Shown: positions 35,752 to 50,075 of the stretch, one piece after another
Layout: every line of letters begins with the position of its first letter
How positions within the stretch are numbered: the first letter of the stretch is position 1
Assembly (NCBI GenBank): GCA_035623825.1
Contig: DASPSR010000064.1
Location: 1-58,460 of the forward strand
Reading direction: 5' to 3'
Origin: Nitrospirota bacterium
Lineage (GTDB): Bacteria > Nitrospirota > UBA9217
DNA length: 58,460 nucleotides
Position numbers and translations under genes: made by a program
The notes under the pieces: model-generated
What the model was told of the DNA's origin: nothing
Seen by the model: the letters and a program-made list of their open reading frames with translations, nothing else
Databases searched by the model: none

Positions 35752-36330
35752 ATGAAACGATCACTCGGTTTTATAATTCTGGTTGTCTCGGGGGCGGTTG
35801 TGTTTACAGCTTACGGCGGAGCAGGAGGCGGCGAAGCAGCCCGGTTCAATTCTCCTTATGGCATAACGACTGACGGGACTAACATCTATGTTGCAGATAG
35901 CAATAACAGCACGATTAGAAAGATTTTGATTTCGACAGGAGCGGTAACGACCATCGCGGGAACGGCAGGAATCGCAGGCGCTACGGATGGCACAGGAGCA
36001 GCGGCCCGGTTCAATCACCCTTTTGGCATAACGACCGACGGGAAAAACCTCTATGTCGCGGATAGCTTTAATCATGCGATCAGAAAGATCGTGATTTCGA
36101 CAGGAGCGGTAACAACGATCGCGGGAACGGCTGGAGGCGTAGGCACTACGGATGGCACGGGAGCAGCGGCCCGGTTCTATTATCCTTACGGAATAACGAC
36201 TGACGGCACAAACCTCTACGTGGCAGATAGCGGTAATCACACGATAAGAAAGGTCGTGATCGCATCGAGAGTGGTATCAACGATTGCGGGAAAGGCCGGA
36301 AGTATCGGCTCTGAGGACGCGAGTCAGTAG
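35752..36330 (+). CDS. Exported NHL-repeat protein (three 55-aa blades)
   Basis: ARFN.P.GITTDG.NLYVAD..N..IRK repeated three times; AGGAG RBS; N-terminal hydrophobic signal. Confidence 0.85.
   Translation: MKRSLGFIILVVSGAVVFTAYGGAGGGEAARFNSPYGITTDGTNIYVADSNNSTIRKILISTGAVTTIAGTAGIAGATDGTGAAARFNHPFGITTDGKNLYVADSFNHAIRKIVISTGAVTTIAGTAGGVGTTDGTGAAARFYYPYGITTDGTNLYVADSGNHTIRKVVIASRVVSTIAGKAGSIGSEDASQ
35835..36320 (+). repeat. Three 165-bp tandem repeats (NHL blades)
   Basis: ccggttc(a/t)at at 35841, 36006 and 36171, with high nucleotide similarity between units. Confidence 0.9.
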
Positions 36331-36713
36331 CTTAAGCTCGGGCTGTTCATTTTATCCATTATGCAACTGTCAACCGGGAATCGTTACCTTTACACGTTCT
36401 CGAAATCCGTTTAGTTGTGGCTGAAGGATACTTCGAGTCATCTTTACTAAAAGTATCAACTAACGTACTGTTCTCAATGGGGAGAGCGCCAGGACATCGC
36501 GGTTTAATATCACTCTCCCCTTTTCTCAATTCTCTCAGTCCGATGAGCCTCTTTTGATCCGGTTTTTCTTGTGTCATCTGCATTCAACATGTCTTTCCGA
36601 TGTAATTTCTTTCGCATTCTGCCTCCTACCAGTCGATGGATTTCGCTTTTCATCGCAGTTCCAACACTTTCCATTTGACAATAGCGTGCCCTTATCGGTA
36701 TTATCATCTAGAC

Positions 36714-37712
36714 ATGACGACTGATAAGACCAACATCTCCGCCATTCGCGACAAAATCCTGAAGCTCAAAAAAGACCTGAACGCTATCATCCTCGCGCAT
36801 AATTATCAGCGTCCCGAGGTCCAGGACATCGCCGACATCACCGGCGACTCGCTCGAGCTTTCCCGCGCGGCGGCGAAGACAGACTATAGCGTTATCGTGT
36901 TTTGCGGCGTGCATTTCATGGCCGAGAGCGCCTCTATCCTCTCGCCCGACAAGACGGTGCTCCTGCCCGAGATAACCGCGGGCTGCCCCATGGCAGACAT
37001 GGTCACGGTCAAGGGGCCGCGCAAAACGAAGCGGGAGCTCTACACCGATGTCCTCGGCATTGCCTTCGAGTTCGCTGACGATTTCACGCTTCGCGACATG
37101 AAGAAGCAATATCCGGGAGTTCCTGTCGTCGCTTATGTGAACACCTCGGCCGCCGTCAAGGCAGAAAGCGACATATGCTGCACATCATCCAATGTTGTCA
37201 AGGTCGTCGAATCCCTGAAGGAAGACACCGTCATCTGCATCCCTGACAGGAACCTCTCTTCCTATGCGGCAAAACGGACGAAAAAGAAGATCATCTCCTG
37301 GGACGGGTTTTGCAACGTGCACCATGCGCACCTCAATGTCGAGGATGCGAAAAGGGCTAAAGCCGAGCATCCCGAAGCCGTCCTAGTGGTCCACCCGGAA
37401 TGTCCTCCTGAAGTGCAGGACATGGCTGACCAGATCACGAGCACTTCAGGCATGCTCCGCTTTTGCAAGGCGTCGAACCATAAAGAGTTCATTATCGGTA
37501 CCGAGGAAGGGATCCTCCATCGCCTCAGGAAGGACAGTCCGGACAAAAAGTTCTATATCCTCAACAGGGAAATGGTCTGCCCGAACATGAAGCGCACGAG
37601 GCTCGACAGCGTTCTTGCAGCCATGGAGAAGATGCAGTACGTCATCAAGGTGCCCGAAGAGATCCGCATCCCGGCCAAACGGGCCCTCGACCGGATGCTG
37701 GAAATCAAGTAA
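36714..37712 (+). CDS. nadA: Quinolinate synthase
   Basis: [43 protein letters not shown]. Start placed at ATG 36714. Confidence 0.96.
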
Positions 37713-37797
37713 AATAATCAGGTCATCGCTAAGGCTGGTTGCGGCTAAATGTCACTTATCCCCGGCCTCAGCCCCGACCTCGTCCTGAAGGTCCTTC

Positions 37798-38901
37798 ATG
37801 CAGATAGCCATACTCATACTCCTTGCGGTCGTCGTCCTCATCCTTCTCTGGCTCATTGCTCAGTCCCAGAAGAAGACCGCTGACCCCACCATCGGCCTGA
37901 TGCAGCAGGAGGTTCTGTCCCTTCGGGGCCAGGTCACCGAGGCCATGCTCAGGAACCAGGAAACGGTGAATCAGCAGCTCGCTCAGATCACGATGCAGGT
38001 GAACGCTCAGCTAGGTCAGGTGACCCAGCAGCTCCAGAAATCGACGGACGATCTGAATACGCGGCTGGACAACGCGGCCCGCGTTGTGCAGGAGGTAAGC
38101 AAGGGGCTCGGCAGCCTGAGCGAAGCCACGAAGAAAGTGTTCGACGTGGGGAAAGACATAGCGAGCCTTCAGGAGATCCTTCGCTCGCCCAAGCTGCGCG
38201 GCGGGCTCGGCGAGCTCTTTCTCGGCGACCTCCTTGCCCAGATTTTCCCGCCGGCCCACTTTACGCTTCAACACAAGTTCAAGAGCGGTGAGACAGTTGA
38301 TGCGGTCATCATGCTCGGTCACAACCTCGTGCCTGTCGATGCCAAATTCCCTCTTGAAAACTTCAGGCGCATCGTTGAGACTGCATCGGAAGAAGAGCGA
38401 AAGACGGCGAAAAAGAGGTTCATTGCCGACGTGAAGAGGCATATCGACGCGATCGCTTCAAAATACATCTTGCCCGATGAAGGCACCTTCGATTTCGCCC
38501 TCATGTACATCCCTGCCGAAAACGTTTACTATGAGCTCATCATCAGGGACGAGGCCGTGGATACTGACAAGGCGCTCCTGAACTACGCCTTCTCCAAACG
38601 CGTGATCCCGGTATCTCCGAACAGTTTCTATGCCTACCTTCAGACCATCCTCCTCGGCCTTAAAGGATTGCACATCGAGGAGCAGACCCAGGAAATCCTG
38701 AAGAACCTCGAGAGGCTCTCGGGGGACTTCGAACGGTTCAGAACGGATTTCTTACTAGTCGGGAAACACCTGACGAACGTCAAGACGAAATACGACGAAG
38801 CGGACAGACGGCTTGAAAAGTTCGGCGACAGGCTCCAGTCTCTAAGCACCTCTGAGCCCCAGACCCTTGTCGAAGAAGGGACAAAAAAGCTGCCCCTCTG
38901 A
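37798..38901 (+). CDS. rmuC: DNA recombination protein RmuC
   Basis: N-terminal TM helix and coiled coil, RG..GE..L, PVDAKFPLE, KYI..GT.DFALMYIPAE. Confidence 0.92.
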   Translation: MQIAILILLAVVVLILLWLIAQSQKKTADPTIGLMQQEVLSLRGQVTEAMLRNQETVNQQLAQITMQVNAQLGQVTQQLQKSTDDLNTRLDNAARVVQEVSKGLGSLSEATKKVFDVGKDIASLQEILRSPKLRGGLGELFLGDLLAQIFPPAHFTLQHKFKSGETVDAVIMLGHNLVPVDAKFPLENFRRIVETASEEERKTAKKRFIADVKRHIDAIASKYILPDEGTFDFALMYIPAENVYYELIIRDEAVDTDKALLNYAFSKRVIPVSPNSFYAYLQTILLGLKGLHIEEQTQEILKNLERLSGDFERFRTDFLLVGKHLTNVKTKYDEADRRLEKFGDRLQSLSTSEPQTLVEEGTKKLPL

Positions 38902-39000
38902 CCTCCAGATTCAATCAATGGTAGCTAGAAAGCAGGTTCAACTTTTGTTATCAGTGGTGATACTCCCACCCAATGGCCGCCTGCAAAGAGGAAACGGTGC

Positions 39001-39040
39001 AAAAAAAAGCGGATTGAGATGACCATCTCAACCCGTTTTT
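39001..39040. terminator. Bidirectional intrinsic terminator between convergent rmuC and tatA
   Basis: AAAAAAAAGCGG-ATTGAGATG-ACC-ATCTCAA-CCCGTTTTT. Confidence 0.75.
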
Positions 39041-39084
39041 AGGATTTTCCAATACCGTGATACTCTGCCTAACCAGCCAGCTGG

Positions 39085-39276
39085 CTACGCCTTTTTCTCT
39101 TCCTTGTGCTCAACAAGCTTCTCTTTTGTGTCTTCTTCCTTCATGGCCTTTTTAAAGGCCTTGATGCTCTTGCCCAACCCTGCTCCGAGCTCCGGGAGCT
39201 TGCCGGGACCGAATATGATGAGCACGATCAGCAGGATTAAGATCAGGTGCAGCGGTTGAAATAGTCCTTCGAACAT
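39085..39276 (-). CDS. tatA: Twin-arginine translocase TatA/E subunit
   Basis: TM helix plus [22 protein letters not shown]. Confidence 0.93.
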
Positions 39277-39371: not shown

Positions 39372-40226
39372 TCAGTGCTTCACAACGAGCACCGGACAGG
39401 GTGCATGGCCGATGACCTTCTCAGCCACGCTTCCCATGAGGAGCCGACGCAGGCCCGTTCTGCCGTGAGAACCAATGATAATCATGTTCGCGCCCTGATC
39501 CTTCGCCAGGTTCGTTATCGCCTCGGAGGCTTCCGTCTCTGCCACAAAAGTCTCGGAATTGACCCCGGCTGCCTCGGCCTGCTTCTTGACGTCGCTCACG
39601 AAGCTTTTCGCCTTCCTGACCAGATCCTCGACGGCCTGCGGCGCCTCGGCGTGAAACTCGGCAGGCACATCCACGACCGAGACGACCTTCAGTTCTCCGC
39701 CGTAGGATCGGGCGAACAAAATCGCTCTCGCTGTCGCGGCGGCGCTGTACTTCGAACCATCGGTGGCGAGCACGATCTTCTTCCACCCCAAAGTGGTGCC
39801 ATTCGGGACAACGAGGACATCACGCTGAGTATGGCCGATTACCCTCGCCGTGACGCTCCCCACGAGGCTGCGCTGGATGCCGCGCAGCCCGCGTCTGCCC
39901 ATGACGATCACGTCGCAGTTCTCAGCATCAGCGAGGTCTACGATCCGCTCGTAGACCTCGCCTTCTTCACAGACCGTCTTGACGAGCATCCGCTCGGTCT
40001 TTGATATCTTTTCGACCTCGGCGAGGGCGTCCTCACAAGGCTTCCTCATGGCAGCCCTGATATCCTTAATACCAAGGATCTCGATTTCGCCTTCGTACGG
40101 GGGAACGACCGACGTCACTGTTATCCAGCATTTCTCTTCGCTCGCCAGTTTGAAAGCTTGGTGAAGCGCATTCCTGCTGGATTCCGAACTGTCGACTGCG
40201 ACGAGGATCTTCCTATATTTCCCCAT
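39372..40226 (-). CDS. Tandem-domain universal stress protein
   Basis: Two Usp domains: KILVAVD..VMGRRG..GSVT.RV and KIVLATDGS..GSHGRTG..LMGSVAEKV..APCPVLVV. Confidence 0.93.
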   Translation of the reverse strand: MGKYRKILVAVDSSESSRNALHQAFKLASEEKCWITVTSVVPPYEGEIEILGIKDIRAAMRKPCEDALAEVEKISKTERMLVKTVCEEGEVYERIVDLADAENCDVIVMGRRGLRGIQRSLVGSVTARVIGHTQRDVLVVPNGTTLGWKKIVLATDGSKYSAAATARAILFARSYGGELKVVSVVDVPAEFHAEAPQAVEDLVRKAKSFVSDVKKQAEAAGVNSETFVAETEASEAITNLAKDQGANMIIIGSHGRTGLRRLLMGSVAEKVIGHAPCPVLVVKH

Positions 40227-41295
40227 GCTCCAGGGCTCCAGAGGCATGCTGCAGTTTCTCTGCCTGTCGGCCTTGCCACATGGCGCGCAGGACGATGAAC
40301 GCGCCTAACGCCAATGCGAATATCATGATGGCGAAGCTGGTGGTCTTGAGCATCTTCACCATGTTGTCGTTCAGTTTCTCGATGAGTCCGAGCTGGGACA
40401 GGTACACGGGAACCATCAGGCCGCGGCTGAACAGGACGATGACCATGATCACGCCCATCACCACCTTGATCATGAACGGCTTCACATAGGTGGTCCCGAT
40501 GGCGCCGAGCTGGATGCCGAAGAGAGAGCCTGCGAGAATGATCATGGCAAGGCGAATATCGACCAGGCCGTGAAGGGCATACTTGAGGGAGCCGCCAAGA
40601 CCCATGACGAATGCGATCACGAGTTCAGTGGCTGAGGCCATGAGGCTTGGTGCGCCGAGAACATAGATCATGGAAGGAACGCCGATGAAGCCGCCGACAG
40701 CGATCGTGGCAGCCAGCATTCCTGTAGCAAACCCGAGGGGGATGGTGAAGAGCACCGATACACGGGCGTTCAGGCTCTTGAAATAGACCATGGTGCCAGG
40801 AATATTGATTGACTGTATCCGCCTGGCAAGCTCGCCGGTTTTCTCCTCTGCATGGGCGTTTCCGGATCTATATGTCTTCCAGGCATCCCGGAGGACGAAG
40901 CTTCCAACCGTGGCGAGGATTACGACGAAGGCGACGCTCACATAGAGGTTCGAGCCGGCATCGCCGAAAGCCAGTTTGATCTTCTCCTGGATATGCGCAC
41001 CGTAGAGCACGCCGGCCTCTGCCGATATGCCGAGAACGATGCCGAGTTTAACATCGACTTGGCCGTACTTGGCCCGCTTGATGGCGCCCACGAGCGCCTT
41101 CGGGAACTTGTGGCACATGTTGCTCGCCACCGCCACAAGACCGGGGACACCAAGGCTCATCATGCCCGGTGTAAGGACGAACGCCCCGCCGGAACCGATA
41201 AATCCGCTCACAAGACCGCCCACAAAGCCTACCCCGAACAGGTAGAGGATGGTAACGGCATCGAGATTAATGAAATTCGCGACGATGTCGTGCAT
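40213..41295 (-). CDS. TauE/SafE (DUF81) family transporter
   Basis: GLVSGFIGSGGAFVLTP, AVASN, second repeat IAVGGFIGVP..ASAT; multiple TM helices. Confidence 0.9.
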   Translation of the reverse strand: MHDIVANFINLDAVTILYLFGVGFVGGLVSGFIGSGGAFVLTPGMMSLGVPGLVAVASNMCHKFPKALVGAIKRAKYGQVDVKLGIVLGISAEAGVLYGAHIQEKIKLAFGDAGSNLYVSVAFVVILATVGSFVLRDAWKTYRSGNAHAEEKTGELARRIQSINIPGTMVYFKSLNARVSVLFTIPLGFATGMLAATIAVGGFIGVPSMIYVLGAPSLMASATELVIAFVMGLGGSLKYALHGLVDIRLAMIILAGSLFGIQLGAIGTTYVKPFMIKVVMGVIMVIVLFSRGLMVPVYLSQLGLIEKLNDNMVKMLKTTSFAIMIFALALGAFIVLRAMWQGRQAEKLQHASGALEHGEI

Positions 41296-41296
41296 G

Positions 41297-41548
41297 TTAT
41301 TTTACCTCCTTTTTCTTCTTCGCGGCCTCAATGCCGAGCACGGTCCAGAAGTTGCCTGTGAACGAGCCATGTACGAAAGAAAAGACAAACGCGGTGATGA
41401 TCGGTAGCAGCGCATACATTCCGCCCTTCGCGAATGTGCTGTTTACCAGATCCTGCTTGAGCAGGAGGGCCGAGTAGAACGCTATGGATATGATGCCCAT
41501 AACGATCAACTTTCCCACCGGCTTCTTTTTTGTGGTGCTCTGTGCCAT
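41297..41548 (-). CDS. Small two-TM membrane protein
   Basis: Two hydrophobic segments, FSFVHGSF..NFW..LGIEA; AGGAGG RBS; abuts the tauE gene. Confidence 0.8.
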   Translation of the reverse strand: MAQSTTKKKPVGKLIVMGIISIAFYSALLLKQDLVNSTFAKGGMYALLPIITAFVFSFVHGSFTGNFWTVLGIEAAKKKKEVK

Positions 41549-41643: not shown

Positions 41644-42147
41644 CTATGCCCTGGCCCCGTCCATCACCACGACGAGCGGACATTTCAGTTGCTGCCATAG
41701 TTCAGCAAGCGTTTTATCTCTCTTATTACAATCGGCATCGAGACTGTGGGGGGATTCAATGACGGCGAACAGGATTTCCTTTTCGCTGTTCGTATAGTCG
41801 ATGATCTCTTGCTTTAGACAGCCGGTCCGCGAGATCAGCCGGTATGGGACATTAGCCGCCTTGAGCTCCGATTCGAAATGGTCCAGTACGGGATCGATCC
41901 TGCGCTCCCTCCTGCCGGTCGATGAAACATAGAGAATGTCGAGGTGGGCGCCGATTCTCCTTGCAGTGTTCAAGGCGTATTTCAGCGTCTTGATATCAAT
42001 CTGCCCTTCTTTGAGCGCAAGAAGGACCCCTCTCCCTTCCTGCAGCATTGACTGTGCGGTAACGCCCTCATCTGCTTCCGCGAAAGTCGTTGCCGCCAGG
42101 GCGGTTTCTATACTTTTCATCATTTTCTTCAGTTTGGTCGTTTCCAT
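41644..42147 (-). CDS. Usp-like protein with N-terminal AxxFAE motif
   Basis: TLKYALN.A.RIGA.LDILYV..CPLVVV (Usp alpha/beta pattern); N-terminal ETALAATTFAEADEGVTAQSML. Confidence 0.72.
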   Translation of the reverse strand: METTKLKKMMKSIETALAATTFAEADEGVTAQSMLQEGRGVLLALKEGQIDIKTLKYALNTARRIGAHLDILYVSSTGRRERRIDPVLDHFESELKAANVPYRLISRTGCLKQEIIDYTNSEKEILFAVIESPHSLDADCNKRDKTLAELWQQLKCPLVVVMDGARA

Positions 42148-42215
42148 AGACCCTCTGTAGACTATCCGATATCCACGGGGCATGCGGAATGCCGCGGAAG
42201 ATGTTCTGCAAAATG

Positions 42216-42392
42216 CTAGTCGGCACGCAATTCTTTTCTCGCAGCAGGACGTTTGTAATCCTGGACTGTCGGCCGACCGGTCTTTCTCGGCCGGTCTTCA
42301 TTCATGATCTGGCGAGCCGTCTCAAACTCACCCTCTTCCGCGAACGCAGCTGCCACCATTGCCGTTTCGAATTTCTTTAAGATGTTTTTCAT
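42216..42392 (-). CDS. Unannotated 58-aa protein (AAAFAEEGEFETARQI motif)
   Basis: GAGGAGG RBS, ATG 42392, TAG 42216-42218: MKNILKKFETAMVAAAFAEEGEFETARQIMNEDRPRKTGRPTVQDYKRPAARKELRAD. First gene after a sigma-54 promoter; below the ORF-track cutoff. Confidence 0.8.
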   Translation of the reverse strand: MKNILKKFETAMVAAAFAEEGEFETARQIMNEDRPRKTGRPTVQDYKRPAARKELRAD

Positions 42393-42437
42393 TGCCGTTT
42401 CCTCCTCATTTCTATTTTCTCTTTCTGCAATTCATAT

Positions 42438-42453
42438 TACAACTATCGTGCCA
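42438..42453 (-). promoter_or_regulatory. Sigma-54 (-24/-12) promoter of the small ORF-usp-tauE-usp operon
   Basis: Minus strand TGGCACGATAGTTGTA against consensus TGGCACG-N4-TTGC(A/T); a sigma-54 activator is encoded in the divergent operon. Confidence 0.75.
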
Positions 42454-42528
42454 ACAGGATGATGTCATTTAACTATTTGAAAACATTATATTCTCAAACA
42501 ATTCATAAAATCAGCTCATGGCCCCACT

Positions 42529-42630
42529 GTTTAATTTTGCAATAGTAATGAACTTAACACGTATTACTGGTTGAATTTTAAACCTAATTTTGATTGTTGC
42601 ATAAAAAATAAAATCGTTGTAAAATGCAAC
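42529..42630. promoter_or_regulatory. Candidate enhancer (UAS) palindromes GTTGCA-N3-TGCAAC
   Basis: GTTGTAAAATGCAAC (42616-42630), GTTTAATTTTGCAAT (42529-42543), half-site GTTGCA (42596); 80-180 bp upstream of the sigma-54 promoter. Confidence 0.5.
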
Positions 42631-42654
42631 TATTCTAAAAAATCCCGGTACGCG

Positions 42655-44652
42655 ATGAAATTTTTTAGGAAATCAGATGACCAGCAGCATGAATTCATTA
42701 TTGAAGAACTTCGCCAGAAGGTCTCGTCGGCAAGCATGCCCCCTCCTGTCGCGAAGATCGCCGAACAGGAACTTGACCTTTTAACGAGAATCAGTTTCTC
42801 GTCCGCAGAATATACCATCGGCATTACCTATATCGATTACCTTGTTTCCCTGCCCTGGAATAGAAAAACCGAAGACAATCTCAACATCGTCCGCGCCGAA
42901 CGCATCCTAAATGAAAACCACTACGGTCTGGACAAGATAAAAGAGCGGATTATGGAGCACCTGGCTATCAAAGTGCTCATGATGAACAAAAAGGCCCGCG
43001 TTCTGATCATCGATGACGAAGAGATCGCGAGGAAAAATCTCGCGCACATCCTCACGAAAGAAAATTACGACGTAACCACGGCAGCAGACGGGGGAGGGGC
43101 GCTCAGGGAGCTGGAATCTTCGGAGTTTGATGTGGTCCTGACCGACCTCCGAATGGGGAAAATCGACGGCATGGACATTCTGGATCGGGTCAAGATAAAA
43201 TACCCTGACACCAAGGTGATCATGGTGACAGGCTACGCTACTGTCCCCTCGGCCATCGAAGCCATGCAGAAAGGCGCGTTCCACTATATTGCCAAACCGT
43301 TTAAGCTCGACGAAGTGCGCGACACAGTAAAGAGGGCGGCCGAGAAAAAATCGCTCCGGCCCATGACCAAGGGCTCGGTGCTTTGCTTCTCCGGTCCACC
43401 GGGCACAGGGAAAACGTCGCTCGGGCAATCCATTGCCCGGGCACTCAACAGAAAATTTACGAGAATCGCTCTTGGCGGGCTTAAGGACGAGGCCGATATC
43501 CGCGGACATCGAAGGACTTACGTGGGCGCAAAGCCTGGTAGGGTTATCGAGGAGATCCGGAGAGTGGAATCGGCCAATCCCGTAATCATGCTTGACGAAC
43601 TTGACAAGATCGGGCACGATTTCAAGGGGGACCCGGAATCGGCCCTGCTTGAAGTGCTCGACCCCGAACAGAATCGTTCTTTCGTGGACCACTATCTTGA
43701 CGTCCCGTTCGACCTTTCAAGCGTCATGTTCATCCTCACCGCTAATGTGCTCGACACCATCCCGGCGCCGCTCCGCGACCGTATGGAGGTCATCGAGTTT
43801 GCAGGGTACACGCAGGAGGAAAAGGCGCGTATCGCCATGCGCTTCCTCTGCCCAAAGCAGACCCGCGAAAAAGGCCTCTCCTTGGGCCAGGTCGTCTTCA
43901 CGGAAGAGGCCATAAATAAAATCATCCAGGAGTACACGCATGAGGCCGGCATCCGTAATCTAGAACGGAGGATCGCCACGGTCTGCCGCAAGATCGCCCG
44001 GAAAACGCTCCAGAGCACCGGCGCAGCGGAGGTCCTGACCATAATCCCTGAATCTGTGGAGCGCTACCTCGGAAGAAAAAAGTTCCACTTCGAGGCAATC
44101 GAGGAACAGGACCGGATCGGCGTAGCCACAGGCCTCGTGGTGACCGAGACCGGCGGCGATATCATCTTTGTCGAAGCAGCCAAGATGAAAGGCGACAAAG
44201 AGCTCATCATCACCGGCTCGCTCGGCGATGTGATGAGGGAATCGGCACAGGCGGCGCTCAGCTACGTCAGGAGCAATGCCGAAGCATTCGGGATCCCCGA
44301 TAATTTCTTCGAGCGCCACGACATCCACATCCACGTCCCCTCCGGCGCGATCCAGAAAGACGGCCCATCGGCGGGCATCACTATCCTTATTGCCCTCGCC
44401 TCGCTCCTGACAAAGCGGCCCGCCCGGCGTGACGTCGCCCTGACCGGCGAGATAACACTTACAGGCCGCATCCTCCGTGTCGGCGGAATCCAGGAAAAGA
44501 TCCTCGCGGCCAAACGAGCAAAGGTCAAGACCGTGATCGTGCCCGCACGAAACAAAGACGATGTCGATGATTTAACCGAAGATATGAAAAGAGACATCGA
44601 CATCCAGATCGCCGACACCATTACGGAAGTCGTGAAAGCGGTGCTGATTTAG
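42655..44652 (+). CDS. lon: Lon (LonA-type) ATP-dependent protease lacking the N-domain, with an inserted response-regulator receiver domain
   Basis: LPW..HYGL..KERI.E.LA, then REC (LIIDDE..VLTDLRM..DG..TGY..AKPF), then Walker A GPPGTGKT, GHRRTY, Walker B LDELDK, protease KDGPSAG (Ser) and GGIQEK (Lys). Start placed at ATG 42655. Confidence 0.92.
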   Translation: MKFFRKSDDQQHEFIIEELRQKVSSASMPPPVAKIAEQELDLLTRISFSSAEYTIGITYIDYLVSLPWNRKTEDNLNIVRAERILNENHYGLDKIKERIMEHLAIKVLMMNKKARVLIIDDEEIARKNLAHILTKENYDVTTAADGGGALRELESSEFDVVLTDLRMGKIDGMDILDRVKIKYPDTKVIMVTGYATVPSAIEAMQKGAFHYIAKPFKLDEVRDTVKRAAEKKSLRPMTKGSVLCFSGPPGTGKTSLGQSIARALNRKFTRIALGGLKDEADIRGHRRTYVGAKPGRVIEEIRRVESANPVIMLDELDKIGHDFKGDPESALLEVLDPEQNRSFVDHYLDVPFDLSSVMFILTANVLDTIPAPLRDRMEVIEFAGYTQEEKARIAMRFLCPKQTREKGLSLGQVVFTEEAINKIIQEYTHEAGIRNLERRIATVCRKIARKTLQSTGAAEVLTIIPESVERYLGRKKFHFEAIEEQDRIGVATGLVVTETGGDIIFVEAAKMKGDKELIITGSLGDVMRESAQAALSYVRSNAEAFGIPDNFFERHDIHIHVPSGAIQKDGPSAGITILIALASLLTKRPARRDVALTGEITLTGRILRVGGIQEKILAAKRAKVKTVIVPARNKDDVDDLTEDMKRDIDIQIADTITEVVKAVLI

Positions 44653-44655
44653 CCC

Positions 44656-46200
44656 ATGTTCAACTATAAACCAAGCATACGCCAGAAGATAACGTTCGGT
44701 TACTATGCCATTGTAGCCATGATCATCGGCCTGACCATGTTCACCTATCTTGAACTTCGGTACGTCGAAAAGAAGATCGTGTTCGGTGAGGCTATCTCCG
44801 AATTTTTTGACACAACGCTCGAGATCAGGCGGTTCGAGAAGAACTTCTTTCTCTACGAACAGAGGTCGGACTATAACGAGAACATCACGTATGTGTCCAA
44901 GGCCCAGGACATCATCGATCGCAATATCACGGGGTTTACTGCCGTGGCATCACCCGAACAGATATCGGCGATCCAGGTCAAGCTGAAAGAATACAAGGAT
45001 ATCATGGAGCAATACGCAGAGCTGAACAACCAGAGCGTCGAAAAACGGCCCAACAATGCGGCTCGCAAGACAATGCTCGAAGGCAAGATACGCGCCAACG
45101 GCAAGGACATCATCACAATCGCGGAAGAGATCTCGAAGACAGAGAGAAGGAGCCTTCAGGCGCTCCTCAACAACTCCCAGCGCATCCTCATAACGTCGAT
45201 CGTGCTCATCTCCATTGCGGTGATTGCCCTGGGCCAGGTTCTGTCGCGTATGGTATCGCGACCGCTGAAATCACTGGAAGAGAGCATGGGAGTCATTGCC
45301 GAGGGGAAGTTCGAGCGTGTTGCGATCGACTCGAAGGATCGTGAAATCGTCTCCCTCACGAAGGCCTTCAACAAAATGCTCAAAGAGCTGGAACTGCATG
45401 AACGGCACCTAATCCAGTCCGAGAAGCTCGCGTCACTAGGCACACTCCTGTCCGGCGTGGCGCACGAACTGAACAATCCCCTGTCCAACATCTCTTCGTC
45501 CAACCAGATACTCATGGAAGAGTTCAAGGAAGCGCGTGAGCGACGGCCTTCCGGATCCTGGCCTCTGGACCCCGACTTCTCAGTGGAACTCATGACCCAG
45601 ATCAACGATCAGACGGACCGGGCACGCAATATCGTCCGTTCCCTGCTCGACTTCTCGCGGGACAGGGAGTTCAAGAAGGAGAAGCTGTCGCTGAAAAAGC
45701 TCTTTGAAGAAACTATCCAGTTCGTCAAAGGACAAGTACCGGCGAGAATAGAGATCACATTGGCCGTCGCCAATGACATCATGATCATGGCCGACAAACA
45801 GCGAATTCAACAGGCTTTCCTGAATCTGGTCAAAAACGCCATTGACGCAATCACCACGGACGAGGGGACGATAACCATCAAGGCCGAGAAGCACCGAACG
45901 ATTGACGATATCGAGGACGAAAAGATTGGCATCTACAATTATCTAAAATACCGCGGCAAGTGCACTCTTGAAGAAGACACCGTTGATATCGAGATACGGG
46001 ACAGCGGCTCCGGTATACCTCTCGATATCATTCCAAAGATCTTTGACCCCTTCTTTACGACCAAGGACGTAGGCAAGGGTTCAGGTCTCGGTCTCTTCAT
46101 CGTACACGAGATTATCGAAGAACACGACGGCTGCATCGCCGTGGACAGCGAACCCGGCAAGGGAACGTCTTTTTTGATGCGTTTGCCGGTGAGGGAGTAA
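44656..46200 (+). CDS. Membrane sensor histidine kinase (TM-periplasmic helical sensor-TM-HAMP-HisKA-HATPase)
   Basis: EKLASLG..GVAHELNNPL H-box, NLVKNA N-box, DSGSG, FDPFFTTK, GSGLGL. Confidence 0.95.
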   Translation: MFNYKPSIRQKITFGYYAIVAMIIGLTMFTYLELRYVEKKIVFGEAISEFFDTTLEIRRFEKNFFLYEQRSDYNENITYVSKAQDIIDRNITGFTAVASPEQISAIQVKLKEYKDIMEQYAELNNQSVEKRPNNAARKTMLEGKIRANGKDIITIAEEISKTERRSLQALLNNSQRILITSIVLISIAVIALGQVLSRMVSRPLKSLEESMGVIAEGKFERVAIDSKDREIVSLTKAFNKMLKELELHERHLIQSEKLASLGTLLSGVAHELNNPLSNISSSNQILMEEFKEARERRPSGSWPLDPDFSVELMTQINDQTDRARNIVRSLLDFSRDREFKKEKLSLKKLFEETIQFVKGQVPARIEITLAVANDIMIMADKQRIQQAFLNLVKNAIDAITTDEGTITIKAEKHRTIDDIEDEKIGIYNYLKYRGKCTLEEDTVDIEIRDSGSGIPLDIIPKIFDPFFTTKDVGKGSGLGLFIVHEIIEEHDGCIAVDSEPGKGTSFLMRLPVRE

Positions 46201-46205
46201 AGATC

Positions 46206-47567
46206 GTGCAAGACACCGCAAAAATACTGATCATTGACGACGAGCGGGTCGCTCTCCGGAACCTTGAGCACGTCATGAAAAAGGAAGGGTACGATGTGAC
46301 GGCTACGCAGAGCGGCCCGAACGCGCTCAAGCTGCTCGATGAACAGCAGTTTGATGTGGTGCTTACGGACCTGCGCATGGAAAAGGTCGACGGCATGCAG
46401 ATCCTGCGGAAAAGCCGTGAGTTTTACCCAGATTCCGAAGTGATCATGATAACGGGCTACGCCACGCTCGATTCCGCCGTTGAGACCATGAAGCACGGTG
46501 CGTTCTACTATATTGCAAAGCCTTTTAAGCTTGAAGAGGTGCGCAAGGTCGTGAAGGAGGCTGTGCACAAGGTCAAGCTCAAAACCGAGAACCGGAACCT
46601 GCGGGAACAGCTCGAAAGCTATCAAGGCAGGGTCAAGATCATTACGCAGGACTCGAACATGGAGAAGACTCTCGAAACCTCACGCCAGATCGCGCCGACT
46701 GATTGCAATGTGCTCATCACCGGCGAGAGCGGAACCGGCAAGGAGCTCTTCGCTCGTTTCATCCACGTGAACAGCAAACGCGCTGAGGGCCCCTTCTTCG
46801 CTCTCAACTGCGGCGCCTTTAGCGAGGATCTTCTATCGAATGAACTGTTCGGTCACGAAAAAGGTGCATTTACCGGCGCCAACAGCATGAAGAAGGGGCT
46901 CATCGAAATGGCGTCGGGAGGTACCCTGTTCCTCGACGAGATCACGGAAATGTCGCCGTCCATGCAAGTAAAGCTCCTCCGCGTTATCCAGGAGAGAGAG
47001 GTCCTTCGTGTCGGTGGAACGGAACCGTTGAAGGTAGACGTGCGGTTCGTAGCCGCTACCAACAGGGACATTCATGATTCCATGAAAACCGGCGCCTTCA
47101 GACAGGACCTCTATTTCCGGCTAAACGTGGTCTCGCTCCGCATTCCGCCTCTTTCTGAACGAAAGGACGATATCCCGCTGCTTTCCTTTTATTTCTTGAA
47201 GAAATACGCCTTGCTTATGAAGAAAGAAGTGACCGAAATCACCGAGGACGTGATCGCACTGCTCATGAATTACGACTTCCCGGGGAATGTTCGGGAGCTC
47301 GAGAACATCATCGAACGCGGTGTGGCGCTAACGAATGGGGCCACCATCGAGTCTGGACATCTGCCCGAGGACCTGCGCGAGCTCAGCATCAAGACCTTCA
47401 GGAAGAAGGAGGGCAAGATACCATCGCTCGAGGAACAGGAAATGGCGTATATCCGTTGGGTGCTGAACGAGGTCGGCGGCAACAAGACCCTCGCCGCGCA
47501 GATACTCGGTATCGACCGGGTCTCTCTCTGGAGGAAGCTCAAGAAGTATGGGCTGGAGACTGATTAG
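46206..47567 (+). CDS. NtrC/AtoC-family sigma-54-dependent response regulator
   Basis: REC domain, GESGTGKE, ELFGHEKGAFTGA, LFLDE, FPGNVREL, Fis-type HTH. Confidence 0.96.
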   Translation: MQDTAKILIIDDERVALRNLEHVMKKEGYDVTATQSGPNALKLLDEQQFDVVLTDLRMEKVDGMQILRKSREFYPDSEVIMITGYATLDSAVETMKHGAFYYIAKPFKLEEVRKVVKEAVHKVKLKTENRNLREQLESYQGRVKIITQDSNMEKTLETSRQIAPTDCNVLITGESGTGKELFARFIHVNSKRAEGPFFALNCGAFSEDLLSNELFGHEKGAFTGANSMKKGLIEMASGGTLFLDEITEMSPSMQVKLLRVIQEREVLRVGGTEPLKVDVRFVAATNRDIHDSMKTGAFRQDLYFRLNVVSLRIPPLSERKDDIPLLSFYFLKKYALLMKKEVTEITEDVIALLMNYDFPGNVRELENIIERGVALTNGATIESGHLPEDLRELSIKTFRKKEGKIPSLEEQEMAYIRWVLNEVGGNKTLAAQILGIDRVSLWRKLKKYGLETD

Positions 47568-47643: not shown

Positions 47644-48120
47644 ATGGGTTTTGAAGACTTGATTTATGATCTGCAAAATGGCCTCGGCCTGGTCCGAGTC
47701 AAGGCTGCGTCAGAACTGGGGAAGCTCAAGGACAAAAAAGCTGCAGCAGCGTTGAGAGAGGCGCTGAAAGACCCCAATATGGGAGTCAGGAGCAATGCAG
47801 CTTTCGCGCTTGGAGAACTCGGTTCGAAAGATGCGGTACCCCAGCTCCTTGCGCTCCTGAACGATCCCGAAGAGCGGGTAAGAAAGAGCGCCGTTAAGGC
47901 CCTGGGGATGATTGGTTCACGTGAGTCCGTTGCCTCCTTGATCCATGCACTGAATCACGACGCATCACTTATTGTCCGTAGGAGCGCCATCAGAAGCCTG
48001 GGCCAGATTGGCGGACCCAAGGCGATGCAGGCCGTTGAACGCGCTGCTTCAGACCCCGACATCATCCTTGCCGATATGGCGAAAAAGGCAATGGAGAATC
48101 ACAAAAACCATAGGCGGTAA
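47644..48120 (+). CDS. HEAT/PBS-lyase-repeat protein
   Basis: Repeated L..L.DP...VR..A..ALG.IG units; AGGAGG RBS. Confidence 0.88.
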   Translation: MGFEDLIYDLQNGLGLVRVKAASELGKLKDKKAAAALREALKDPNMGVRSNAAFALGELGSKDAVPQLLALLNDPEERVRKSAVKALGMIGSRESVASLIHALNHDASLIVRRSAIRSLGQIGGPKAMQAVERAASDPDIILADMAKKAMENHKNHRR

Positions 48121-48543
48121 AAACCGTCTTTTACGCATATCAAGCCCGTCAATATTTCATCTTGAAATTGGCCCTCCTTCAGACCGAACTCCGCTTTGAA
48201 AGACCCGGCCCAGTCTACCGGTAGTGACTTCCTTTCTTTTTCCTCCAATCGTCCTGTGTGAATTTCTTGCAGGGATTTCATCTGCAACACTCTTGTTCCC
48301 GTGCAGGACTTTTTTTTAGCAGTCTCGTAAAGATCAGAATAAAATGCAAGTGTGTTTGTTCCGCGAATGTCGGCCACTTTTTATGTTTTGATGCTTGTAC
48401 TTTCTTGCTTCTGCGCACCACAAATTCATTCCGGACTGTTTATAAATAATTCTTATGGCGCGTTATGATGATTTTATGGATTTTGTGCACTGAAACGGGA
48501 ACATTTTTCTTGACATCATCTCTATTATTATATTATAAGAAAA

Positions 48544-48579
48544 AGTGCATAATGAAACGATATAGTTGCAAATTGCAAT
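48544..48579. promoter_or_regulatory. Tandem palindromic sites resembling those at 42529-42630, upstream of the second tauE gene
   Basis: AGTGCATAATGAAAC (48544-48558) and GTTGCAAATTGCAAT (48565-48579), 21 bp apart. Confidence 0.4.
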
Positions 48580-48636
48580 TGAATTTTTCAATAATAATTT
48601 TGGATTGGACTCATACGAGGGAGGAAAGGACAAGAA

Positions 48637-49644
48637 ATGGTAGAGCGTAATTTGAAGGTCTTTTTCATGCTGCTGGTCGTTTTAATCGCGCTGACTGCGG
48701 CTGGTGCAGTGTTTGCTTCGTCCGGTACACATGAAGCGGCGGCACCTGCAGCGGTAGAGACGCCTTTGGCTGCGACTGCGGCAAGACCGGCATCGACAGC
48801 ACCTTGGTGGATCTGGCCGCTGGCATTGTTCATCGTGACGTTTATCCTCGGCATTCTGGCTGTCCTCGGCGGCGTTGGCGGAGGCGTGCTTTTTGTGCCG
48901 ATCGTGGGCGGATTCTTCCCATTCCATATCGATTTCGTGAGAGGCGCGGGCCTGCTCGTGGCGCTTGCGGGCGCGCTTGCTGCCGGCCCTGGTCTCCTCA
49001 AGAGGAACCTCGCCAGCCTTCGCCTCGCTCTTCCCGTCGCACTTATCGCGTCGGCAGCTGCGATCGTCGGCGCGATGATCGGCCTCGCCCTCAAGCCGGA
49101 TGTCGTCAATACGCTCCTCGGCGCGACCATCCTGCTCATCGTGGTCATCATGGCGACGGCGAAGAAGTCCGACTTCCCCGTAGTGCCGAAGCCCGATGCG
49201 CTGTCTCAGAGCCTCGGCATCATGGGCATCTACCGGGAAGAATCGCTCGGCAAGGACGTTGAGTGGAATGTCCACAAAACGCCTCTGGGTCTGACCCTGT
49301 TCATCGTGATCGGCATCATGGCCGGCATGTTCGGTCTCGGCGCCGGCTGGGCGAACGTGCCTGTGCTGAACCTCATGATGGGCGCGCCGCTCAAGATATC
49401 GGTGGCTACGAGCAAGTTCCTGCTCTCGATCACCGACACTTCTGCGGCATGGGTATATCTGAACCAAGGCGCGGTGCTTCCCATGATCGTGGTGCCGTCC
49501 CTCGTGGGCATCATGATCGGATCCATCGTGGGCGTGAAGATACTCGCCAAGGCGAAACCCAAGGCCATCAAATGGATGGTGATTGGCCTCCTGCTCTTCG
49601 CAGGAGCTAGATCCCTGCTCAAGGGACTCGGAGTCTGGAGATAG
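48637..49644 (+). CDS. TauE/SafE (DUF81) family transporter
   Basis: GILAVLGGVGGGVLFVP and GIMAGMFGLGAGWANVP repeats, ATS; multiple TM helices. Confidence 0.9.
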   Translation: MVERNLKVFFMLLVVLIALTAAGAVFASSGTHEAAAPAAVETPLAATAARPASTAPWWIWPLALFIVTFILGILAVLGGVGGGVLFVPIVGGFFPFHIDFVRGAGLLVALAGALAAGPGLLKRNLASLRLALPVALIASAAAIVGAMIGLALKPDVVNTLLGATILLIVVIMATAKKSDFPVVPKPDALSQSLGIMGIYREESLGKDVEWNVHKTPLGLTLFIVIGIMAGMFGLGAGWANVPVLNLMMGAPLKISVATSKFLLSITDTSAAWVYLNQGAVLPMIVVPSLVGIMIGSIVGVKILAKAKPKAIKWMVIGLLLFAGARSLLKGLGVWR

Positions 49645-49655
49645 GGGGAAGAAAA

Positions 49656-50075
49656 ATGATGAACGAAAAAACCAAAGCATCGGAAGAACAGATGGCATAC
49701 GCAAGCGTCCTAAGTATCGGCATGTGGTTCGGTCTAGCCTTGCTTATCATCACGTTTATTGTTTACATATCAGGGGTCATCCCGAGCTTCGTTCCGATCG
49801 ATGATCTGCCGAAATACTGGGGAATGAGGGTCCACGATTTCAACCATACTCTCAACGCACCTACTGGCTGGCAATGGGCTGCACTGGTCGGAAAGGGCGA
49901 CTACCTCAATTTTGTAGGTATCGCGATCTTGTCGGGACTCACGATACTGTGCTACCTAGTGCTCCTGCCGATCCTGTTTAGGAAGAAGGATACGGCGTAC
50001 GTCGTTATTGCCATCGTGGAAGTGCTGGTGCTGTCTTTGGCGGCAAGCGGTCTCTTGAAAGCAGGCGGCCACTAA
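49656..50075 (+). CDS. Small membrane protein, TauE partner (DUF1634-like)
   Basis: Three hydrophobic segments, EV.VL.LAASG..GGH end; directly after tauE. Confidence 0.75.
   Translation: MMNEKTKASEEQMAYASVLSIGMWFGLALLIITFIVYISGVIPSFVPIDDLPKYWGMRVHDFNHTLNAPTGWQWAALVGKGDYLNFVGIAILSGLTILCYLVLLPILFRKKDTAYVVIAIVEVLVLSLAASGLLKAGGH

Follow-up and report, generated by a model that had tools for sequence, protein, structure and literature searches.

A contig of a Nitrospirota bacterium (GenBank assembly GCA_035623825.1, contig DASPSR010000064.1), whose 58,460 nucleotides are referred to here as the window, encodes on its reverse strand, at 42216..42392 (stop codon included), a protein of only 58 amino acids, followed by a gene for a protein resembling universal stress proteins (USPs), here called UspL. 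This small open reading frame (ORF) is a real, conserved gene, and it shares with UspL a hairpin of the FAEAGE type, an undescribed and widespread helix-turn-helix module that is portable between proteins. The hairpin tracks cassettes that combine sigma-54 control, a TauE transporter and USPs, and it is not specific to the Lon protease that is encoded divergently. On balance, we lean towards a reading in which the hairpin would be a docking element and the small protein and UspL would form the regulatory subunit of the TauE transporter module, as suggested by sequence and by analogy with a USP linked to another transporter.

The small gene and its signals

The small ORF is a gene because it has many homologues under purifying selection, because its translation and promoter signals are conserved and because it is found in contigs of RNA libraries. 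Homologues number 309 at E ≤ 0.01; among the 120 listed, 103 are exactly 58 residues long, with identities of 76-97%. Comparison of 18 distinct 58-residue orthologues gave proportions of synonymous and nonsynonymous differences of 0.73 (pS) and 0.19 (pN), respectively, and hence a dN/dS of about 0.08. A Shine-Dalgarno sequence, GAGGAGG (42401..42407, reverse strand), lies 8 nt ahead of the ATG, and nearly all orthologues carry an AGGAGG-like site at the same place. Further upstream, 47 nt from the ATG, we found a sigma-54-type -24/-12 element, TGGCACG-N4-TTGT (TGGCACGATAGTTGT, 42439..42453, reverse strand), and when 30 distinct upstream regions of orthologues were compared, 19 showed a corresponding TGGCA[CT]...TTGTAA at a distance of 51-91 nt. 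The genome contains rpoN, and the adjacent enhancer-binding protein (EBP) has the GAFTGA motif.

Concerning RNA, contigs assembled from two peat metatranscriptome libraries of separate studies match the gene with 100% identity, one from library X1 spanning 42064-42404, and thus the entire small ORF, and one from library X2 spanning 42126-42313. Such contigs show presence in RNA libraries, which is not proven transcription, and their depth cannot rank genes. No contig of libraries X1-X3 falls on 42405-43591, where the Lon gene begins and the space between the genes lies, and this missing cover is not evidence in either direction.

These data agree with an earlier note on this DNA, made from the letters alone, in that the ORF encodes the protein which the note quoted and has a sigma-54-type element upstream. 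Its conservation, on which the note had made its proposal depend, is borne out by the homologues, the purifying selection and the RNA-library contigs. The note had called the protein unannotated; its function is indeed unnamed, but public records already contain homologues, including one of a Nitrospirota bacterium, which are called 'hypothetical protein' where they have a name. By its predicted promoter, the small ORF is the promoter-proximal gene of a putative sigma-54-dependent operon consisting of the small protein, UspL, an 83-residue membrane protein (TM83), a TauE transporter and a tandem USP.

A hairpin module shared with UspL

The small protein consists of two parts of opposite charge. 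Residues 1-33 (42294..42392, reverse strand; net charge -3) form the FAEAGE-type hairpin, a helix-turn-helix resembling a tetratricopeptide repeat (TPR), whereas residues 34-58 (42219..42293, reverse strand; net charge +6) make up a basic tail rich in Pro and Arg that ends in RKELRAD. UspL, with 167 residues (41644..42147, reverse strand), has its own copy of the hairpin at the N-terminus (42025..42132, reverse strand). The real start of UspL is the ATG at 42147 (METTK...), not the first ATG of the listed ORF at 42183, and nearly all of its homologues are 167 residues long with a METTK-like beginning.

The earlier note had seen the same motif in both proteins, and this is confirmed by a pairwise BLASTP alignment with 14 identities over 34 residues (E = 5e-7). 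A profile was then built from 32 copies of the motif (alignment A1, 36 columns) and used to scan all six-frame ORFs of at least 30 residues in the 3.24-Mb genome; it matches exactly four ORFs (E values between 6e-22 and 1.7e-13), with no further match at E values of up to 10. Hence, the motif sharing between the small protein and UspL is far beyond chance. Within A1, positions A14, A18, E19 and A26 are invariant and F17, G21 and E22 near-invariant, while in the full-length alignment of small proteins (A2) G21 and E22 are invariant too. The near-invariance of E19, G21 and E22 across architectures would be expected if the acidic helix-loop-helix (AEEGEFE) were a sensor that binds a cation or a small ligand relevant to the transporter. 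We consider such a sensor very improbable, given that no metal-binding family is matched and that the spacing of the conserved A/F/G/A residues, as judged by eye, fits the packing pattern of TPRs.

A profile search of 1.84 billion representative proteins returned 1300 clusters (at 50% identity) at E ≤ 1e-3, 150 of which reach E ≤ 1e-10. The best 149 matches fall into three size ranges. Proteins of up to 75 residues (54) have a single copy of the hairpin in 52 cases and none found in the other two, the copies being counted with a regular expression. Those of 76-150 residues (70) have one copy in 13, two in 46 and three in 11, and those longer than 150 residues (25), in which the hairpins are followed by a USP-like domain, have one in 4, two in 14 and three in 7. 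This distribution from single to multiple copies among the best 149 matches identifies the motif as a repeat unit, present in 1-4 tandem copies with long linkers between them. No Pfam or NCBIfam family covers it, a search of a protein atlas returned just unnamed clusters of 'hypothetical protein', and the literature searched by motif and by gene context yielded no mention of it. Many of the small proteins with two hairpins (e.g. P0259, P0281, P0282, P0289 and P0340) end in a conserved, beta-hairpin-like ...[F/L]..VGL.G.R..YG segment, and the ...ELRAD end of the window's protein aligns with the first residues of this C-terminal VGL-G-R--YG module of its wider relatives.

The hairpin is related in appearance to those of TPR and FimV-type proteins, with which it has in common a helix-turn-helix of about 34 residues, small residues at packing positions and weak profile matches. 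Thirty relatives with two hairpins were compared with known families: TPR_4 matches four of them and TPR_14, TPR_19 and TPR_6 three each, all below the gathering scores, and FimV_Cterm (TIGR03504) matches three at E ≤ 0.01 (best E = 6.8e-6), with P0241 scoring 23.8 bits, below the cut-off of 30.65. The 58-residue protein of the window has no family match even at E ≤ 1, and no match to FimV_Cterm. In contrast to generic TPRs, the FAE-x-GE core is much more conserved and the copies are only 1-4, separated by long linkers.

UspL was described in the earlier note as Usp-like, which its predicted structure corroborates although it has no Pfam match (none at E ≤ 0.01). In the AlphaFold2 (AF2) model, residues 40-162 form a confident alpha/beta domain, and the top Foldseek matches of UspL are all universal stress proteins, with 3tnj first (E = 1.9e-5, probability 1.0), TeaD (3hgm) second (E = 2.4e-5) and the USP domain of KdpD (7ji4) next. 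Multi-hairpin relatives match Pfam Usp (PF00582) only at E values between 4e-5 and 1e-2, with scores that do not exceed the 24-bit cut-off. The G-x2-G-x9-G[ST] ATP motif was not found in UspL. On the other hand, three cysteines are invariant in 21 aligned homologues, located at G-C 110-111, C141 and C-P 157-158 (numbered on a 168-residue translation, with one extra leading residue), and in a protein that lacks the ATP motif these may constitute a redox or metal site. In the AF2 model of the monomer, the hairpin of UspL (residues 1-37, pLDDT below 50) stands free of the USP domain, which is consistent with an external partner.

Other bacteria have single chains of the form hairpin-linker-hairpin-UspL-type domain, namely P0271, P0277, P0310 and P0354 (BLASTP E values of 3e-7 to 3e-9 to the UspL domain), and P0390 appears as a read-through of an orthologue of the small protein into an orthologue of UspL, with 63% identity to the UspL domain. 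Judged by these sequences, the small protein and UspL resemble a two-hairpin USP-like protein that is split over two genes.

The place of the small ORF, first behind the promoter, could also be that of a leader peptide whose translation tunes the downstream genes in cis, through coupling or arrest, while the product itself would be without function. The conserved C-terminus of the small protein can be aligned with the ...LRAPG... tails of relatives, and it may loosely resemble arrest motifs of the RAxP type. Yet all 58 residues are under purifying selection, the N-terminal 33 are a domain common to many other proteins, the position of the small ORF varies among other loci, and UspL starts 68 nt past its stop codon, behind a spacer with an AGAGGG site of its own. 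A mere leader is thus, in our judgement, extremely improbable.

Cassettes with and without Lon

Downstream of UspL, and on the same strand, the operon continues with TM83 (41297..41548), which has two hydrophobic segments and belongs to no family, a TauE/SafE-family anion transporter (40213..41295; Pfam PF01925, E = 4e-34) and the tandem USP (39372..40247; Pfam Usp, E = 2e-64), which has two G-x2-G-x9-G-S ATP motifs. Divergently, on the forward strand, lie genes for a Lon protease with a receiver (REC) domain (REC-Lon, 42571..44652), a HAMP histidine kinase (44656..46200) and a response regulator of the sigma-54 EBP type with REC, AAA+ and HTH domains and the GAFTGA motif (46206..47567). REC-Lon comprises a Lon pre-AAA helix, the REC insert, AAA+, lid and the S16 protease, the REC being inserted between the conserved 'HYGL...KERI' helix of Lon and the P-loop of AAA+. 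In agreement with the earlier note, which had spoken of a divergent Lon without an N domain, a domain search of this protein gave REC, AAA+, lid and protease, and the N-terminal substrate domain was not found. The likely start of REC-Lon is the ATG at 42652 (MKFFRK...), from whose residue 1-2 the orthologues align; the listed TTG start adds 27 residues (42571-42651) that are missing from the orthologue alignments.

Right after the EBP gene, at 47644-50075 on the forward strand, we observed a protein with HEAT/PBS-lyase repeats, a second TauE (48637-49644) and a membrane protein with a weak match to DUF1634 (49656-50075), while the other flank of the system (35752-39276) holds ordinary genes, i.e. 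those for an NHL-repeat protein, NadA, RmuC and TatA.

For a broader view of the gene neighbourhoods, 80 loci from named public genomes were collected (numbered L), in which all ORFs were scanned with the profile and the cassette genes were mapped by tblastn; having been retrieved by similarity to this small protein, they are biased toward this type of cassette in all neighbourhood counts. Their taxa include Nitrospirota/Thermodesulfovibrionales, Desulfobulbaceae/Desulfurivibrionaceae, Hydrosulfovibrio, Thermoleophilia, Actinomycetes and Thiotrichaceae. Stand-alone hairpin ORFs in these loci are about 57-66 residues long, and the hairpin also heads UspL. It is further found at the N-terminus of a 115-residue homologue of TM83 in loci of the Desulfurivibrionaceae type (L063-67, 72, 76, 79, 80, 82 and 89). 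At least two hairpin ORFs are present in 73 of the 80 loci, in 68 of which two lie less than 1.5 kb apart, and a hairpin-bearing USP-like gene adjoins 57 of the 72 small-ORF calls. Five of these calls proved misclassified (L051, L054, L105 twice and the second in L084) and were left out of later counts.

The genome itself offers a comparison, since sigma-54 cassettes occur in it three times, always with a hairpin-USP, one or more membrane proteins and a tandem USP. In the two paralogous cassettes on contigs C27 and C48, the hairpin is inserted after beta1-alpha1-beta2 of the USP-like protein, whose genes (L025:7959-8495 on C27 and L026:8134-8649 on C48) stand behind TGGCAC-N9-GC or TGGCAT-N9-GC and are followed by TauE and/or a membrane protein of the Alph_Pro_TM type and by a tandem USP. 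No Lon is encoded within about 8 kb of either. In other genomes, cassettes of the C27/C48 type were seen directly downstream of the Lon cassette, with a histidine kinase and an EBP of their own.

The earlier note had proposed that the motif is an interaction module for the Lon without N domain. The hairpin does behave as a portable module of the interaction type, but its tie to Lon is not supported, as motif-bearing proteins occur independently of Lon loci. Among the 35 of the 72 small-ORF calls that have at least 5 kb on both sides, 19 have a Lon (17 of them within 3 kb) and 16 have none; two cassettes of this genome are without it, and so are whole lineages, as the loci of Desulfurivibrionaceae and Thermoleophilia combine the small ORF with hairpin-UspL, TM83, TauE, USP and a divergent kinase and EBP but no Lon. 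Thus, the hairpin tracks sigma-54/TauE/USP cassettes and is not Lon-specific.

A narrower version of the proposal would have the small protein, rather than the hairpin as such, act on Lon, as a substrate or degron, an adaptor or an allosteric regulator of the divergent, phosphorylation-gated REC-Lon, with the tail ...RKELRAD as its handle and a feedback loop as the outcome. Co-occurrence agrees with this, since in a set of 61 related genomes REC-Lon (full-length in 23, partial in 2) and a full-length orthologue of the small protein are found in exactly the same 25. However, this match across relatives is that of one inherited cassette, and the hairpin itself is common where there is no Lon. 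The small ORF stands directly before Lon, on the same strand, in L049 and L073.

The earlier note had called the tail basic and disordered, of which the former holds (net +6), whereas conservation indicates that it is not freely disordered, with R36, R40, P41, R48 and R56 invariant in 29 sequences and a dN/dS of 0.14. In the 67 valid small ORFs, a strict ...[L/I/V]R[A/V][D/E/N] tail is present in 17 and absent from 11 of the Lon-linked loci, and present in 2 and absent from 37 of the others. Eight of the 11 Lon-linked loci without it have an extended variant, ...LRAPG.K[KR] or ...ISAPGAKR, so that LRA-type tails, strict and extended together, occur in 25/28 Lon-linked loci vs 7/39 others. There are exceptions in both directions. 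L057, L058 and L106 have Lon without such a tail. Conversely, no Lon accompanies the tail in L044 and L077 (flanks of 5 kb or more), in L074, in L038 and L065 (short flanks), in L031, whose metagenome-assembled genome has a Lon at L039, and in L048, which has an adjacent 36-residue Lon fragment. When both characters are mapped on a TauE tree of 50 cassettes, 4 changes are counted for Lon and 8-9 for the tail, leaving two independent contrasts on supported branches and four on all branches (sign test, p = 1), which is why the raw two-by-two table gives no statistical support. The association between tail and Lon, strong in its raw form and unproven, may therefore be taken as a lead, not as a result. 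Where REC-Lon is part of the cassette, the basic tail is a better candidate than the hairpin for any contact with Lon.

A precedent for a small protein that acts on Lon is LarA, a small stress protein that activates Lon of Caulobacter through a C-terminal degron (PMC10665427; PMC11882793). Like LarA, the small protein is small and of stress type, and its C-terminal tail could address Lon. LarA, though, binds the Lon N domain, which is missing here, and a C-terminal Asp disrupted its degron, whereas the small protein ends in Asp; the two share no sequence similarity, and the link of the small protein to Lon is one of gene neighbourhood only. An activator of LarA type was accordingly considered and rejected, REC-Lon having no N domain and the small protein ending in ...LRAD. 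We also observed a protein of 570 residues in ENA (P0457) in which REC-Lon is cut inside the protease domain and continues in frame into a hairpin small protein. As a fusion it would speak for a partnership of the two, but the greater part of the protease domain is missing and a single contig of 2543 nt is its source; a deletion, a pseudogene and a chimera made in assembly are all possible explanations. Taken with the few independent contrasts and the exceptions of the tail, a role directed at Lon appears unlikely to us.

A second alternative, which the earlier note had also raised in the form of a ligand of the kinase or REC, concerns signalling. The hairpin is fused C-terminally to stand-alone REC domains (Pfam Response_reg) in L051, L062, L091, L093 (two genes) and L104, and likewise in P0408 from Thermodesulforhabdus, and genes for a histidine kinase and a sigma-54 EBP accompany most hairpin loci. 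The small protein, once induced through sigma-54, could then be a connector whose hairpin binds the kinase, the EBP or a REC and which feeds back on the two-component circuit; PmrD, SafA and MgrB are small connector proteins of other two-component systems. Contact with any of these three is putative, however. For about 8 kb around the hairpin-USP genes of C27 and C48, which have sigma-54 promoters, neither a kinase nor an EBP is encoded, and since a membrane subunit and USP domains bear the hairpin as well, its hub would rather be something else than the kinase. A connector role seems to us rather doubtful. In one of the loci with REC fusions (L093:2165-6975), the gene of a PAS-type sigma-54 activator faces away from those of a small protein with two hairpins, the two REC-hairpin proteins, a histidine kinase with dCache, another REC and a 429-residue TauE, and the locus has no USP.

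A proposed regulatory partner of the transporter module

The arrangement of the window has a counterpart in Desulfovibrio vulgaris Hildenborough, where DVU3303 (REC-Lon), DVU3304 (histidine kinase) and DVU3305 (sigma-54 EBP) have been described as a three-component system (Rajeev 2011, PMC3333781). Its targets are the operon of the system itself and DVU3302-3298, with genes for membrane, hypothetical and UspA-type proteins; the genes are upregulated in high pH, heat shock and stationary phase, and orthologues were noted in Thermodesulfovibrio. The same regulon is listed by Kazakov 2015 (PMC4641369). According to Trotter 2023 (PMC10102598), the three genes have a cofitness above 0.9 and are detrimental in chlorate, where the target anion transporter DVU3299 is important. 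The window has this type of layout, with adjacent REC-Lon, kinase and EBP divergent from a sigma-54-driven operon of membrane proteins and USPs, and so have many related loci; gene set and layout are the same as those reported, the anion transporter included. The parts of these three papers that were consulted mention neither a small leading ORF nor a shared hairpin.

TeaD is the USP of the TeaABC TRAP transporter and the regulator of its transporter. UspL resembles TeaD (PDB 3hgm) in its USP fold and in a gene linked to a transporter; unlike TeaD, it has no ATP motif, has three invariant cysteines and an N-terminal hairpin, and does not match Pfam Usp. It is by analogy with TeaD that we infer a regulator of the transporter. 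In this proposal, the promoter-proximal small protein of the sigma-54 operon would contribute one FAEAGE hairpin and UspL a second, at its N-terminus; the hairpins would serve for docking, and the small protein would work with UspL as a regulatory subunit of the TauE transporter module, with a putative effect on transport. We regard this account as somewhat more probable than its negation.

Several observations weigh against it. The relation of the hairpin to TPRs is sub-threshold in all comparisons. The AF2 model of a natural two-hairpin protein has four confident helices with a pTM of 0.39, and it is without a significant structural match, the best Foldseek E being 0.93; it deviates from consensus TPRs by about 11 Å rmsd, and its top, non-significant neighbours are TPR, PPR, MamA and FimV TPR3. 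Packing of hairpin on hairpin within such a protein was considered, and AF2 gives no confident mutual arrangement; with the low pTM and the Foldseek result, it lacks modelling support. The cassettes of C27 and C48 have one hairpin protein and no small partner, hence a second hairpin protein in cis is not required. As for the split-gene argument, P0390 rests on one contig of 1162 nt, with a possible sequencing error at the stop codon. Finally, the 80 loci are subject to the retrieval bias given above, and the likeness to the D. vulgaris system is one of gene set and layout.

A bolder extension of the docking reading, 'tag and tail', takes up the association of the tail with Lon. Here the FAEAGE hairpin would be a docking tag that assembles peptides, USP-like proteins, a membrane subunit and RECs around sigma-54-controlled TauE transporters, and in those cassettes that have REC-Lon as well, the ...RKELRA tail would let this phosphorylation-gated Lon without N domain select the tagged complexes. 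We hold this to be quite improbable; if it were true, an encoded adaptor would replace the missing substrate-recognition domain of Lon and close a feedback loop.

It should be noted that ORFs of some 58 codons that head operons may be conserved components of a system, although they are readily overlooked or remain 'hypothetical'. In this case the small gene leads to a widespread protein module for which neither Pfam nor NCBIfam has a family, and which is a marker for the output of a sigma-54 'three-component' stress system with genetic phenotypes in the model sulfate reducer D. vulgaris, in chlorate, at high pH and in heat. The sharing of one tag by small peptides, USP-like proteins, RECs and a subunit of a transporter gives concrete, testable partners, and it bears both on the regulation of transporters by USPs and on the way in which a Lon that has no N domain might locate its substrates.

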